Source of the DNA: Octopus vulgaris
Taxonomy: Eukaryota
Direction: 5' to 3'
Length of the DNA stretch: 64,000 nucleotides
NCBI GenBank assembly: GCA_951406725.2
Contig: OX597815.1
Coordinates: forward strand, 142,600,001 to 142,664,000
In this document: in pieces, positions 8,765 through 58,344 of the stretch
Layout of the letters: every line of letters starts with the position of its first letter
Position numbering within the stretch: position 1 is the stretch's first letter
Position numbers and translations under genes: made by a program
The notes under the pieces: model-generated
What the model was told of the DNA's origin: nothing
Seen by the model: only the letters and a program-made list of their open reading frames with translations
Databases searched by the model: none

Positions 8765-11700
8765 CTTTGATACTTTGATACTTTGATAGGTTTCGGCCAT
8801 TATTGGCCCAGGCCATGTCTAACTTAATAGCACCACCTGGTGAAGTCTTTCAAGTCAGAATTTGGGCACTATGGCCCACTCAAGTAGAGAGTTATTGTTT
8901 ACAGAGGCATATCCGGGTGTAGGGGGTTTATCCGGGATTTCTTGAAGGAATCTGTCCAAAGACTTCTTGAACCCTATAGGGTCAGTTTCTGTTTTAATGT
9001 GTTTTGGTGTAATGTTAAAGAGAGCGGGGCCAATTGAGGTGAAATAATTGTGCCGTATTGTTGTTATGAGATGAGAGTGCGATTTTTGTTTTGGGCGGAT
9101 GGCACGGGGCCCAAGCCTTGGATGTACCTTAAAGGTGATGCCAACATCATTTGGGCAATGCTGATGGAATATTTTCCACATCATGCAGATGATGTAGCGC
9201 TCACGACGACGTTGGAGAGAATAGAGTTTTAGCTTTTCTAGTCGACCCCAATAGTCGAGGCCTGTCATGCCATCTATCTTTTTTGTGATTGCCCTTTGAG
9301 GTGCTTCGACTTTTTTGATACCTTGTATTGTGTGGGGAGACCACAGTGGACAACAGTATTCAAGGTGGGGTCGGGCAAAAGTGGAGAAGAGAAGGATAAT
9401 GGTGTGGATATCTCTCGACTGGAAAGTTCTGAGAATCCAGGAACACATTCTGCGGGCCATGTCAACTTTGGTGTTTATATGAGTGGCCCAGCTTACGTTG
9501 TTGTCCACAATTACTCCCAAGTCTCTGATGTTGTTGGACGCCGCGAGAGTTTCACCTGAAGGAAGGGAGTATGGGAGTTTCAGGGCATCCTCTTTTCCAA
9601 AGTGGATTAGCTCAAATTTATCCTCGTTCAGCAGCATATTGTTTTTTTCTGCCCATTGGATAACAGCCAGTAGATCTGACTGAAGGCATGTCCGGTCACT
9701 CGCCTCATTTATGACCTTCTGTAGCTTGGAGTCATCTGCAAAGATTTTTATGTTGCTGTGCTTGATGATGTCATTAATGTCATTAATGTAAATGATGAAA
9801 AGAAGTGGGCCCAGCACAGTGCCTTGCGGAACGCCACTACTGACTTTGGCTGGGCTTGATTTTACCCCTTCAACTACAACATGTTGAGATCTGTCTGTCA
9901 GGAAACACTTAATCCATTTCAGTAACTTTCCAGAGACACCAATGTTGGATAGTTTTTTCAATAGGATCTTGTGATCGACCCTGTCGAAGGCCTTACTGAA
10001 ATCAAGGTAGATGACATCGGTGTTGGAGCCCTCTCCCAAAGCTCTCAAAATGTCCTCAAAGTGATGCAGGAGCTGCGTTAGGCAGTCCCTTCCATTACGG
10101 AACCCATGTTGGTTGGAGATCAGCCGTCTGTTGCTTTCCAGAAATTGGGTTATTTGAGATCTCACCACCCTCTCAAATACCTTGATGATATGAGAGGTGA
10201 GTGAGATCGGACGGTAATTCACTGCAAGGGACTTGTTTCCCTTTTTGAAAACTGGGACAACAGACTGGGACAGAAGGTTTTTTGGAATATAGCCAGCATC
10301 CAGTGAGTTTCTCCACAGATTAGCAAGGGGAGATGCAAGTTGGTGTCGACACACCTTCAGGACACAAGCAGGGAACCTATCGGGGCCTACTGCTGAATTG
10401 TGTTTTATTTCGTTTATCGCCGCTAAGACATCAGGGGCACTAAACGTTATGTCCGATATAGTGTGTTGGGGGTTGACATCACTGATACAGCCCAGATCGG
10501 CCATATCAGGATTGCTGAAAACAGAGCAGTATTGTTTCTGCAGTATCTCGGCCATGGATTTGGCATTATCTTGGAGAGTGCCAGTTTCGTCAATTAGAGG
10601 GCCTACAGTGGAGACAGTGACCCTGCGTTTCCTCGCAAATGAAAAGAACACTTTGGGGTTGAGTTTGATTTTTTCAATGGCCCACTTCTCCTCAGCTGAT
10701 CTTTGGTTATTGATGAGGGACTTCATGCATTGTTGGAGGTTATATTTTTTGGATTCAAGCAGTGCGATAGCCGTCGAATGTGTGTGTTGCTGTTGGCAGT
10801 ACTTTAGTTTGTTAATTTTTTTGTTTGTTCTTTTTATTTTTCTGATAATGGTTTTTCTGTTTTGGGGGATTCTGCACTTTTTGTTCACAGGTCTTGGTGG
10901 GGAGTGTTTTGCACATATGTCTGTGACGGTGTCTACAAAGATCTGCCAAGATGTTTTATGGTTGGTGGAGATGTGTGTATGTGTAAAGGACCAGTCAACA
11001 TTTGATAGCTCGTTCCTGATTGCATCCCAGTTGGCTTTATGGAGATCCATGTTGTCAAATGGGTGGGCTGGAGGAAGGTCACTAGGATTAGCTTTCGGCT
11101 GGTGGAATTTCATGTTACAGAGAACCATGTCATGGTCTGAAAGAAGGGTTTTTTCCACTGTAACGTTATGTATAGTGTTAGTGTGGTTACTAAACACTAG
11201 GTCCAAAATGTTCTGATGTCTTGTTGGTGCAAGGACAAGTTGGGACAAGAAAAACTCATTCGTAAAGTCGAAAAGTGACTCTGCTGCTTCTTTGTCAGCG
11301 GTTGAGGCGGGAGTGCTTGGTTTCAAACAGTTTGTAGTCCAGTCAACACAGGGTAGATTGAAGTCTCCCATCATGAGTATGTTGCTAGAATGGCACTGTT
11401 GAATAAAGCACTTAATGCTGTTGAGGCATTCTTTAAAGCACAGTATGGGTGTTTGGGGCGGCCTATAGAGCCCAATTACTGTCAGATCATTGGCTTTGTT
11501 GTGCACGGTGACTGATTCACAGTAGCCGTTGGAGAATATACTATTTCCATCTGCCGTAAATGAATCATGCAGGAAAATGGCAGTTCCACCCTTCCTCCTG
11601 CCGATACGATCCGCGCGGATGGTTGTGAAATTCTTCACTCTCACTTCGGCTTCCAAGTGGGAGTTGTCAAGGTGGGTCTCAGTGAGAATGAAGAAAGGGA

Positions 11701-11967
11701 TGTGGTGTGAATGGTTACCAACCCAGTCTTCAATGAATTGGACCTTCCATTTTTGTGCATTGATGGAAGGGCTGACACCTTGTGCATTGAGTAGGAATGT
11801 GGAGGTTAGTATAGTGGCTGGTTTTGACTGTTGCAGGGGGCTTGGATTTTTTGTGTGTGTTAGTGGCAGCAATGTGGGGAATTGGTGCACTGGGGTAATA
11901 GCATAGGATGGTGTTGAGTGATGGCTAGAATGTTTTTGTGTATCTCTTTTGCCATGTTCAACATGGC

Positions 11968-11970
<3 letters not shown>
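8765..11970 (-). mobile_element. LINE (CR1/L2 group), probably 5'-truncated, inserted in (TA)n, with (TATCAAAG)3 3' tail
   Basis: Sharp GC-content step versus flanks; (TA)n-type tracts on both sides; 8-nt tandem tail at 8765-8788; contains ORF2. Confidence 0.93.
8855..11968 (-). CDS. LINE ORF2: APE endonuclease + reverse transcriptase, uninterrupted (~1040 codons)
   Basis: APE motifs LLNAQG, LTETHL, GLYRPP, MGDFNLP, ILDLVF, SDHDMV; RT motifs [41 protein letters not shown]; C-terminal [11 protein letters not shown]. The track start (12046) lies in the flanking microsatellite and is probably not real. Confidence 0.95.
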
Positions 11971-12030
<60 letters not shown>

Positions 12031-12717
12031 CCATATGTATATACATATGTACACACGTATGTATACACGTATAAATATATGTAAGTATGTGTACATAAAT
12101 GTCGACATTATTGAAAGCGACATATATGTGTATCTGGCCTATTCGTGTTTTTGTTGTCTTTTTCTTATATACTCATCATAATTTTTTGATGTTGAGGAGG
12201 AAAAAGAAACAAAATGTTGCATTTGTTTCTATAGCAAAAAAGTTTAGGCTGAAGTTGTATGCATATCCATAAATATGTATGTAATTTCAATGTGTATACA
12301 TATATATACGTACGGACTTTCACACGCATACATATTTTATGTATACATGCACATGCATACAGGTATGCATACAAAGTGGTTGTAAGTATGTTTTATATAA
12401 CTTTTCAGAAGTCTTACAGGAAGATACATACAGACTGTTTGCGTCAAATTACTTATAAACTCTCTATACTGTATGCAACAATGTGAAATTGCTTGCTTGC
12501 ATTTATGCAACTATACGTGTGTTGTGTGAATGCGTGAGTGCGTGTGTGTGTATGTATATGTATGAATGCATGTATATATGTCTATATATAGATAGATAGA
12601 TAGATGGATACACTCATACATATACAAGTGTGTGCGCGTATGTATATATATATATATATATATACACATTCATACATATATATGGATATATATATACATA
12701 TATATGTACGAATATAT

Positions 12718-52507: not shown

Positions 52508-52540
<33 letters not shown>

Positions 52541-52545
<5 letters not shown>

Positions 52546-52725
52546 GCCAACCAAATGTGTTGTCCTATACAGGACAGTGCTTTAACCCCAGGAAGACATG
52601 TCGTTTTCCTGGGGCTATAAGAGTCAGTAGCACTGTCCTCTATAGGACTCCACGCTTGGTTGGCAATTATATGTTATGATTCCGTATTGATACGGTTTAC
52701 TTCTTGATCAAAGATTTACTATAGC
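52541..52725 (+). mobile_element. Fold-back element with 3' tail, in (TA)n
   Basis: Arms tagttgccaaccaa..aggacagtgct..ccccaggaa / ttcctgggg..agcactgtcct..ttggttggcaatta (52541-52669), then ~55-nt unpaired tail. Confidence 0.75.
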
Positions 52726-52729
52726 TATA

Positions 52730-52849
<120 letters not shown>

Positions 52850-55313: not shown

Positions 55314-55997
55314 CACCATGCTGTCCTCCTGACATGTAATCTTTCATGGATGACTAAAGCAACTTTTGAAAGTGTAATGCCCCTTGAGATACTGTACGAT
55401 TCAGAACTCCAGCAATCTATGGGCACTATATTTCAGTAACTGAAAGACAATAGGATTTCTTTCCTACTGCTGGGTATATGCAGACCGAAGTTCGAACCTG
55501 TATCGAACGCTGCTGCTGTTCGAAGATTTTAAGTTCAAAGAATTTTATTTCACATATTTTTCATATTTATTTTGCCATTTCTATAGGTGTGTTGTTATAT
55601 ATAGATTTGTGTGCATATGCGTGTGTGTGTGTGTGCTAATTATTAATAAAACTATATTAGATTATATTGCTAGCTATTTAGACTAAGTCCATGATCCCTA
55701 TTTTAACGCTTTTCTATATCTTGTCTTTGAAATCACCTTTTCATAGTCTTTTGAAAGTAAATGTTTGTTTCGCGTAAATTCTTCACAAAACGTTCCAGGG
55801 TCATTTAGCTGGCATATTTGGGAATTACAGCTGTAGATTATGTGTCATAAGAAAATTGCCATCCCTTGACTTACTCTCTGTGAGATCCTTACTGTAAACG
55901 GAGATTAAGAGCTACATTTATACGGGATGTTTAGTTTTTGATCATTTCATGATTACTTAATCCAGACACATATTAGGCGTAAAACAAATTATATACT

Positions 55998-57678
55998 ATA
56001 AGGGACTAAAGCCATCTGAAAATGGCTAGGGACAGGGCAGGGTGGTGGGGGTGTTACTGTTGCATTTAGCCCCAGGCGAACATCGACGTCACCAGAAAGG
56101 CTCGACACCGTCACGGTGTCCTTATCCTGCAAAGGGAGGTAATTCCCCGATGAAGCGGAAACCACACACGGACCATGGTTTCAAGGTGTATTGCCTATCG
56201 TCGGCGTGTGTCTATATCTCTTTTAGAGAATTATTATTGCTTTCGAACAGATTTTCGAAATCAGCAAATGTATTTTGCTTGAAAATCTATATATGAATAT
56301 CCTGCAGAGTGAGGATTCGTCGAGGAAGCGGAAGCCTACCCCACGCCGACGATAGGCAATACACCTTGAAACCATGGTCCGTGTGTGGTTTCCGCTTCAT
56401 CGGGGAATTACCTCCCTTTGCAGGATAAGGACACCGTGACGGTGTCGAGCCTTTCTGGTGACGTCGATGTTCGCCTGGGGCTAAATGCAACAGTAACACC
56501 CCCACCACCCTGCCCTGTCCCTAGCCATATTCAGATGGCTTTAGTCCCTTATGTTATCGAGCAGTTACTGTCTATATCTCTTTTAGAGAATTATTATTGC
56601 TTTCGAACAGATTTTCGAAATCAGCAAATGTATTTTGCTTGAAAATCTATATATGAATATCCTGCAGAGTGAGGATTCGTCGAGGAAGCGGAAGCCTACT
56701 CCACGCCGACGATAGGCAATACACCTTGAAACCATGGTCCGTGTGTGGTTTCCGCTTCATCGGGGAATTACCTCCCTTTGCAGGATAAGGACACCGTGAC
56801 GGTGTCGAGCTTTCTGGTGACGTCGATGTTCGCCTGGGGCTAAATGCAACAGTAACACCCCCACCACCCTGCCCTGTCCCTAGCCATATTCAGATGGCTT
56901 TAGTCCCTTATGTTATCGAGCAGTTACTGTCTATATCTCTTTTAGAGAATTATTATTGCTTTCGAACAGATTTTCGAAATCAGCAAATGTATTTTGCTTG
57001 AAAATCTATATATGAATATCCTGCAGAGTGAGGATTCGTCGAGGAAGCGGAAGCCTACCACACGCCGACGATAGGCAATACACCTTGAAACCATGGTCCG
57101 TGTGTGGTTTCCGCTTCATCGGGGAATTACCTCCCTTTGCAGGATAAGGACACCGTGACGGTGTCGAGCCTTTCTGGTGACGTCGATGTTCGCCTGGGGC
57201 TAAATGCAACAGTAACACCCCCACCACCCTGCCCTGTCCCTAGCCATATTCAGATGGCTTTAGTCCCTTATGTTATCGAGCAGTTACTGTCTATATCTCT
57301 TTTAGAGAATTATTATTGCTTTCGAACAGATTTTCGAAATCAGCAAATGTATTTTGCTTGAAAATCTATATATGAATATCCTGCAGAGTGAGGATTCGTC
57401 GAGGAAGCGGAAGCCTACCACACGCCGACGATAGGCAATACACCTTGAAACCATGGTCCGTGTGTGGTTTCCGCTTCATCGGGGAATTACCTCCCTTTGC
57501 AGGATAAGGACACCGTGACGGTGTCGAGCCTTTCTGGTAACGTCGATGTTCGCCTGGGGCTAAATGCAACAGTAACACCCCCACCACCCTGCCCTGTCCC
57601 TAGCCATATTCAGATGGCTTTAGTCCCTTATGTTATCGAGCAGTTACTGTCTATATCTCTTTTAGAGAATTATTATTG
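55998..57678 (+). mobile_element. Multimeric non-coding retro-insertion: 5' inverted segment + four 359-360-bp tandem units + ~30-bp partial unit, 13-bp TSD
   Basis: CAAATTATATACT at 55985-55997 and 57679-57691; units start at 56210, 56570, 56929, 57289, 57649; 55998-56210 is the reverse complement of part of the unit. Confidence 0.9.
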
Positions 57679-58344
57679 CAAATTATATACTCCGTTCAGT
57701 AAAAAGTCCTTAGTTTAATTAATAAACATTCCTGATGAAAATTCTTTCTTAAACGTACTATAACTATACATATATGGATTAACTTTGAACATACTTAAGC
57801 CTCATTTTTTCATTATCATATTCTTTCTAATCACATTCCCACTAAAAAAAAAGAATATGCCCAATACTACCCAGTATATTTCGTTCTAGAAAAAAAAGAC
57901 AGAAAATCCTCTTGTGTTTAAACGAACTGGGTCACGTTACACAACATACACACGGCTAGTTTTCGCTCGAGCCTGCTTTGTAAATCGTATCACAGGTATC
58001 GAATTGATAGGATCTTTAAAATACCTTAATTTGCAACTATCTAGCTTCAAATCAAGCAATATTCAGAATTATATGGATAATTTTGTCCCATCTTACATCC
58101 ATTTACGACGCCATTTTCGGCTGTTGATTTAGATTTATTGCTTATTTTATGTCAGGTCTTCAGCATCATTGCCAACTATAAATTGTTCTTTATATGAGTT
58201 TGATTATATATATATTGTGTGTGTGTGTGTGTGTGTGTGTCAGTGTGAGCTTGTGTGTGAGAGTGTATGTATAGCAGTATCTATCTATGTGCGCCAGTGG
58301 ACGTGTATGTGATTCTGTATGTATGCAACTATATGTTCCCCCTC

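Follow-up and report, generated by a model that had tools for sequence, protein, structure and literature searches.

How does an array of four nearly identical, non-coding 360-bp units, headed by an inverted piece of the same unit and bracketed by a short duplication, come to stand in the octopus genome? The array occupies positions 55985-57691 of the window, by which we mean the whole 64,000-nt stretch of Octopus vulgaris DNA that was analysed. Judged from its DNA sequence, the array belongs to a young family of non-coding retroelements, non-LTR retrozymes with a predicted U4C hammerhead, and represents one of its insertions.

The anatomy given in the earlier note, with four units, a 213-bp inversion, a partial unit and a flanking duplication, was confirmed at the same coordinates by TRF and by alignment, the partial unit now measuring 32 nt. 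TRF reported a period of 360 at 56209-57679 with 4.1 copies (4.09 direct units) and 99% matches. Unit positions are numbered from u1 = 56209, and the parts of the array are as follows.

55985-55997, plus strand: left target-site duplication (TSD), CAAATTATATACT
55998-56210, minus strand: inverted arm, u132-u344, a 213-bp reverse complement of the unit with 1 mismatch
56209-57679, plus strand: direct arm, four units of 359-360 bp plus u1-u32, its outer end at the family site u32/u33
57016-57144, plus strand: predicted rod in unit 3, spanning about u89-u217, rich in G-U pairs, long, and tipped by the hammerhead
57637-57679, plus strand: Penelope-type tail, u350-u32/33, lying between both fixed ends and present on the direct arm only
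57679-57691, plus strand: right TSD, copy of CAAATTATATACT

The units run from 56209 to 56568, 56569 to 56927 (359 bp), 56928 to 57287 and 57288 to 57647, followed by the partial unit at 57648-57679; compared with unit 3, these differ at 1, 3, 0 and 1 positions. The two arms overlap by 2 nt at the inner junction, and the outer end of the inverted arm falls 5 nt short of u349, the fixed site described below. Because the first C of CAAATTATATACT doubles as unit base u32, the TSD is either 12 or 13 bp long. The unit is densely structured and has no recognisable ORF, as had been claimed: its folding gave z = -6.4 on the plus strand and -4.0 on the minus strand relative to shuffled sequences, and no ORF of at least 120 aa overlaps it. 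With GC at 0.47 over 56001-57000, both composition (below 50%) and unit size (within 150-450 bp) are those of non-LTR retrozymes. Elsewhere in the window, an older sister family of retrozymes has left a short insertion with two arms between (TA)n runs at 52527-52755 (profile matches with E = 2e-19 on the plus strand and 5e-7 on the minus strand), and an apparently intact LINE ORF, with 1105 unbroken codons and endonuclease and RVT_1 domains, is found on the minus strand at 8855-12172.

Searching the assembly (2.8 Gb, 227 contigs) with the unit returned 205 matches on many contigs, nearly all of them 95-100% identical, among the 40 of 903 candidates that were scored. We counted 779 instances of an exact 20-mer from the right end with TATAT directly after it, as opposed to 0 for the control, and this count is a lower bound on insertions. 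With at least 779 of them, the unit is dispersed and not confined to the window locus, a point on which the earlier note had made its reading depend. We mapped 64 loci: the window, 38 best-match loci and 25 taken sequentially along contig C1 by their hammerhead match. One fragmented locus (L046) was left out of the end table, two complex loci out of the pairing count and one locus (L126) out of the flank count. Runs of (TA)n flanked both sides at 47 of the 63 loci with both flanks, compared with 2% of random window positions, and the TSDs at the three non-TA sites measured 13, 13 and 12 bp. The copies are thus dispersed, carry TSDs longer than 4 bp and apparently have no LTR structure, as is the case for non-LTR retrozymes. 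Identical architecture at independent loci led us to reject an assembly artefact for the family, a conclusion that concerns the family and not the unit count of this particular array.

Every unit contains a type I hammerhead motif with the core CCGACGA…GAAA, in which U4C is the single core change. The order of elements is helix I CACACG, CCGACGA, U, helix II, U, GAAA, C-CAUG-G, UC, the predicted cut and CGUGUG, where helix II is AGG/CCU with a 7-nt loop.

56165-56210, minus strand: hammerhead in the inverted arm, core from 56204, predicted cut after 56171
56340-56385, plus strand: hammerhead of unit 1, core 56346-56352, GAAA at 56368, predicted cut after 56379, with A133C as a mismatch in helix I
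56700-56745, plus strand: hammerhead of unit 2, predicted cut after 56739, helix I with two changes
57059-57104, plus strand: hammerhead of unit 3 (the one entered in the covariation alignment), core 57065-57071, predicted cut after 57098
57419-57464, plus strand: hammerhead of unit 4, predicted cut after 57458

The statement in the earlier note that the unit lacks CTGANGA..GAAA is therefore literally correct, but it overlooked the hammerhead with core CCGACGA in each unit, and its corollary that processing would need a different motif no longer holds. We treated U4C as a variant rather than an exclusion because a natural U4C hammerhead has been published; in the available text of that source, U4C considerably reduces activity in vitro, and a viroid with the variant stayed infectious despite low in vitro activity (PMC3088659). 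A hammerhead with a single core change places the unit among the known non-LTR retrozymes, rather than in a new class. An Rfam search, suggested at the outset as a way to find a ribozyme, called no ribozyme family on the unit at E up to 5-10, and at E up to 1 the hammerhead was not called either at eight sister loci with a canonical core. Thus, the unit has neither the canonical CUGANGA core nor the Rfam call that mark non-LTR retrozymes.

The genome was also searched with the pattern CYGANGA-N10-24-GAAACCATGGTC, which gave 1332 matches, as against 2 for the reversed control. Only 39 of the 1332 have a CTGA core, and about 1293 have CCGANGA, that is, U4C. One of the 39 belongs to the array family; most of the others come from older sister families, which are collinear with the unit from the ribozyme through to the tail. 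We aligned 31 motifs (alignment A1), consisting of the window unit and 30 sister-family copies with canonical CUGANGA, and left out 9 of the 39 canonical-core matches. Helix I was 91.8% paired over the 31 motifs, with both sides changing in five of its six pairs, and none of 500 shuffles reached the covariation score. When the register was slid, pairing was 23-39%, compared with 80% in register. Helices I and II both covary in the 31 motifs, as expected of a type I fold. Relatedness is not taken into account by the shuffles, and the search pattern had already set the core and helix III columns; the weight of the evidence for the predicted hammerhead is carried by helix I and the slid controls. 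Helix III takes only self-complementary forms among the copies read (CCATGG, CCTAGG, CCTGGG), and such a helix is also described, in the available parts of PMC4209133 and PMC7229834, in hammerheads that cut as dimers.

Computed energies, into which tertiary contacts were not modelled, were -15.6 for the hammerhead fold versus -25.5 for the rod, a gap of about 10 kcal/mol. We also built a tree of 66 natural copies, whose root rests on distant sister families and several of whose ladder nodes are weak. Copies with a CC core formed one clade (100/100) nested within those with a TT core; the deepest core was TTGATAA (U3-A8), followed by TTGATGA. Throughout the lineage, the 3-8 core pair stayed paired or wobble-paired. 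Together with the covariation of helix I, this retention points to selection on the putative ribozyme.

Several other readings of the unit were set aside by eye. A hammerhead look-alike on the minus strand (CCGATGA..GAAAC) is without helix I and simply mirrors the rod as its complement. Readings as twister, HDV-like, hatchet or pistol motifs were dropped after the hammerhead was recognised. Related motifs occur elsewhere in the genome: L100, L101 and L132-L162 represent older sister families, at least three in number, in which the core is the canonical CTGANGA, helix III is again CCATGG and the tail is related, many copies of which terminate at the equivalents of both fixed sites. At L127-L130 the hammerhead motifs share this helix III but have a long helix II, one pair of them lying 434 bp apart, and no RT frame was found there within about 5 kb.

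The outer ends of the arms cluster at two positions, u33 (42 arms) and u349 (38 arms), which lie 44 nt apart on the circular unit. Two arms were present at 44 of the 64 loci, with both ends on site in 37 and one end off site in 7. All 37 on-site loci pair one u33 end with one u349 end (p = 1.5e-11 versus independent choice). A second set comprised 20 further loci selected solely by a u33 end, without a hammerhead match; here 14 of 14 resolvable two-arm insertions end at u346-349 opposite u33, five loci were scored as one-arm and one extended past the fetched stretch. These loci were short or older copies, and none was an autonomous element. Together, the two fixed ends mark a 44-nt Penelope-type tail.

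Penelope insertions are described, in the text available to us, as combining a truncated copy in inverse orientation with a tail of 30-40 bp on one side (PMC8557442, PMC3846280), and in vitro the tail corresponds to two adjacent internal RT starts, both target strands being nicked and extended (PMC11167929, available portion). The array family likewise has an inverted truncated arm and a one-end tail, here of 44 nt, and it shares the AT-rich or microsatellite targets of Penelope mobilisation. That one end usually bears the tail is already published; the array family adds a strict count, arms that are multimeric and junctions that are not palindromes. A 4-bp hairpin in the tail was conserved in 14 sequences, with 0 of 4 pairs covarying, which gives no support for a selected structure. 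The target-primed insertion with inversion proposed earlier stands insofar as the array is a retroelement; it is not L1-style twin priming from an arbitrary internal position, the outer end of the inverted arm being fixed. The relation to retrozymes and Penelope that was proposed with it is borne out by the type I hammerhead fold and the Penelope-type ends.

We put at roughly 70% the probability that a young retrozyme family was pasted in by a Penelope-like enzyme from one, probably circular, RNA with two fixed starts. On this model, read-through of a genomic array would yield a multimeric RNA, in which adjacent hammerheads would pair via their palindromic helix III (CCAUGG) and cut at u171/172. 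The 360-nt monomer would be ligated into a circle, where, by prediction, most of the ribozyme would be refolded and inactive. A Penelope-like RT/GIY-YIG dimer would then make one nick in each strand of an AT-rich target, the two nicks lying about 12-13 bp from each other, priming one target strand at u33 and the other at u349. Each RT would travel a variable distance round the template, and end joining would finally connect the two cDNAs head-to-head through 0-8 nt of microhomology or a short filler.

Sequence variants among the 64 loci, which carry 32 haplotypes, bear on the template. Full units differed at a mean of 0.95 sites within an arm, 0.84 across arms and 7.5 between loci; in the C1 set, the corresponding values were 0.34, 0.20 and 6.2. 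Opposite arms were concordant at 126 of 133 informative sites (32 loci), after 6 of 356 passes had been dropped as misaligned, and variants private to L043, L104, L118 and L121 were present in every pass. Private variants running through all passes and arms sharing a haplotype favour the claim of a one-event origin from a multimeric or circular template. Most simply, the agreement of arms and haplotypes would be explained by a circular monomer, and less simply by a homogeneous linear multimer; the template of the window array was probably one RNA, in the form of a circle. Five loci, namely the window, L035, L039, L065 and L110, are partly mosaic. In the window, A133C is common to units 1 and 2, which a single perfect circle does not account for. 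Older-subfamily variants lie inside a young haplotype in the inner portions of both arms of L039 and of one arm of L116, a pattern suggestive of a switch from one RNA template to another, or of nesting.

Arrays that are mosaic, like those at L035 and L065, would also be expected if the same two-site Penelope insertion copied a long uncut read-through multimer, the U4C hammerhead being weak or unused and a circle unnecessary. The reduced activity of U4C (PMC3088659, available text) and the difference between the active fold and the predicted ground state agree with this, and in the PAc system hammerhead cleavage is dispensable for insertion in vitro (PMC11167929, available portion). Moreover, ends do not pile up strongly at the cut site: about 6 arm ends fall at u172-173 genome-wide, among 19 pattern matches, compared with a roughly estimated expectation of about 2 per position, and we claim no hotspot. 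Such scarcity fits a circle, but also an uncut multimer. However, private variants in all passes of both arms, along with 32 haplotypes at 64 loci, would require repeated single-unit bottlenecks; arms as long as 14.7 units, the retained 3-8 pair and the covariation of helix I also speak against it. We regard the uncut template as unlikely, if still a serious contender.

If single or partial units had inserted and the arrays had expanded later in DNA, by slippage or unequal crossover, neighbouring units should share variants. They do so in a few arrays (12 partly shared site entries at 5 loci, the window included), and growth of this kind has been proposed for vertebrate retrozymes (bioRxiv 10.64898/2026.07.22.740005, available text). 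Against these 12 entries stand 113 singletons, mostly strand-symmetric C>T and G>A as later decay predicts. Oppositely oriented arms are often both multimeric within intact ends, which would demand separate expansions, and inner ends fall evenly along the full unit length (chi-square p = 0.15). Later expansion is therefore very improbable as the source of the arrays.

The inner junctions also bear on the proposal, discussed for Penelope elements in the available part of PMC3846280, that the inverted arm arises by fold-back self-priming of one cDNA and not from priming on the second target strand. Fold-back would account for the common haplotype of both arms, and one of 44 junctions is an exact palindrome, with a few more within 15 nt. 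Yet the junctions have 0-8 nt of overlap or a filler of at most 28 nt and are non-palindromic, and the circular distance between paired inner ends takes values anywhere from 0 to 180 nt. Multimers occur in both arms, with as many as 14.7 units, and either arm may be the longer; the second arm stops exactly at the other fixed site, sometimes several units longer than the first. We give fold-back very little credence, and return to two-strand priming by a Penelope-like enzyme.

The genome harbours a young Penelope-like family with many intact 781-aa RT + GIY-YIG ORFs, most copies of which are 95-99.6% identical, so that at the sequence level an active family of this kind is present alongside the arrays. 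Its linker, CxxxxCxxC, fits the Neptune/Nematis type as described in the available text of PMC8557442. Among 28 loci examined, the family has (TA)n targets and two ends 40 nt apart, with one of each end at 3 of 3 two-arm loci. As a separate observation, a U3-A8 hammerhead-like motif precedes the first end at L220:690-725 and L212-L225, and upstream there is another long frame, of up to 479 codons, that overlaps the RT frame.

In the partner search, 150 of 6136 GIY-YIG candidates were scored. The Penelope families sampled, at 50 GIY-YIG loci, had no sequence homology to the unit, and a profile of the sister families found no pLTR in those 50. Three profile matches near GIY-YIG loci proved to be separate insertions, in two cases on visual reading. 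At L226, where 46 nt next to a Penelope ORF matched the tail (E = 1.6e-5), the match was likewise rejected: it belongs to another insertion, of a sister family, that lies about 600 bp beyond the element. The terminal region of this second Penelope-like family (L226:5001-5044) contains, by eye, a motif resembling a hammerhead, its core reading CCGAAGA (U4C) and its helix II flanked by U-U, and a related copy at L166 has the core CTGAAGA. Since the sampled families share no sequence with the unit, we infer Penelope mobilisation from the insertion signature; the unit does not encode the RT and GIY-YIG of an autonomous Penelope-like element. That the unit is itself the pLTR of an unfound autonomous Penelope-like element, with the copies as 5'-truncated stumps, would explain why ends, tail, inversion and hammerhead all resemble a pLTR, and the fraction of candidates scored leaves it some room, but it is the least probable reading: at 64 + 20 loci no arm continues into coding sequence, arms repeatedly pass from u360 back to u1, and the unit stands at the terminus of 0 of 50 GIY-YIG loci.

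None of the records containing the unit is listed as RNA. In contigs from three of four runs, the unit forms a 390-nt closed cycle (360 + 30) with its flanks uncovered, which fits a circle or a tandem, in RNA or DNA. Locus-level variants over u77-u348 at the 64 loci include 13 A>G versus 3 T>C (p = 0.01), whereas singletons number 8 versus 6. Older copies confirm an ancestral A at just 8 of the 13 A>G sites, and a neighbour test of the 13 sites gave no ADAR-like pattern, with a 5' G in 6. The excess possibly reflects RNA editing, RT bias or selection on G-U pairs, and is at most a weak hint of editing.

A bolder version of the preferred reading would combine these elements: a Penelope dimer rolling one circular RNA from two starts 44 nt apart and fusing the products, a dominant lineage with a detuned hammerhead, and some A-to-G changes as RNA edits fixed in DNA. 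We hold this tentatively and would sooner bet against the whole of it. Detuning would have run through U3-A8, U3-G8 and C3-G8 plus U4C. If true, tail, inversion and tandem array would all be products of a single event, and the detuned hammerhead would stabilise the circle.

The mobiliser of animal retrozymes and the timing of array formation have hitherto been argued from co-occurrence and trees. Hundreds of near-identical copies with the full Penelope insertion signature offer an unusually clear record of retrozyme insertion, and the one-site-per-arm rule is genome-level support for the two internal starts observed in vitro and argues against fold-back priming. With a 360-nt template, defined starts and an intact candidate enzyme in one genome, the Penelope mechanism becomes directly testable. 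Searches by Rfam or with a required CUGANGA overlook whole retrozyme families.

Our literature search, limited to freely accessible main texts, found nothing on the unit family or on twin fixed ends in retrozymes; the supplements of PMC7229834 (invertebrate retrozymes), PMC4209133 and PMC8557442 may list the family or U4C cores. Animal non-LTR retrozymes, in the available text of PMC7229834 and bioRxiv 10.64898/2026.07.22.740005, are likewise tandem non-coding units of 150-450 bp with GC below 50%, one type I hammerhead per unit, a long TSD and a strong self-pairing fold. Like HHR_Amex2 of axolotl as described there, the unit has a basal U-U mismatch in helix II and a helix III of 2 bp capped by a tetraloop. 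The unit family differs in its CCGANGA (U4C) core, found in about 1293 of 1332 pattern matches, and in a predicted monomer fold that hides the ribozyme, as is reported for few animal retrozymes (PMC7229834, available text). For retrozymes, the available text mentions neither twin ends at fixed sites nor a tail, an inverted arm or targeting of (TA)n; for them cleavage and circles have been demonstrated, whereas the unit family is known from genome sequence.

These last traits bring the family close to endonuclease-bearing Penelope-like elements, which, in the available parts of PMC8557442, PMC3846280, PMC11167929 and PMC4209133, also have a head-to-head inverted copy, a one-end tail, targets that are AT-rich or (TA)n, TSDs close to 10 bp and a hammerhead with palindromic helix III. 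Older copies of the unit family share the U3-A8 core known from these elements, as described there. The unit family differs from Penelope-like elements in having no ORF, a tail of 44 nt and 360-bp multimers in both arms, either of which may be the long one, and it has no match to the pLTRs of the families sampled here. Small Penelope hammerhead variants were reportedly the subject of a 2017 paper.

MRC1-type Chlamys elements of Chlamydomonas are also non-autonomous Penelope parasites with multicopy head-to-tail insertions; in the available text of PMC8557442, they generally have 3' homology to an autonomous partner, of which we found none for the unit family, and their clade is without canonical hammerheads, whereas the unit family has a hammerhead motif. 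Hammerhead viroids and satellite RNAs resemble the unit in size (about 360 nt), structure and hammerhead (PMC3088659, available text). Unlike viroids, the unit has a complete hammerhead on the plus strand only, and its copies indicate genomic retro-insertion and not RNA-to-RNA replication.
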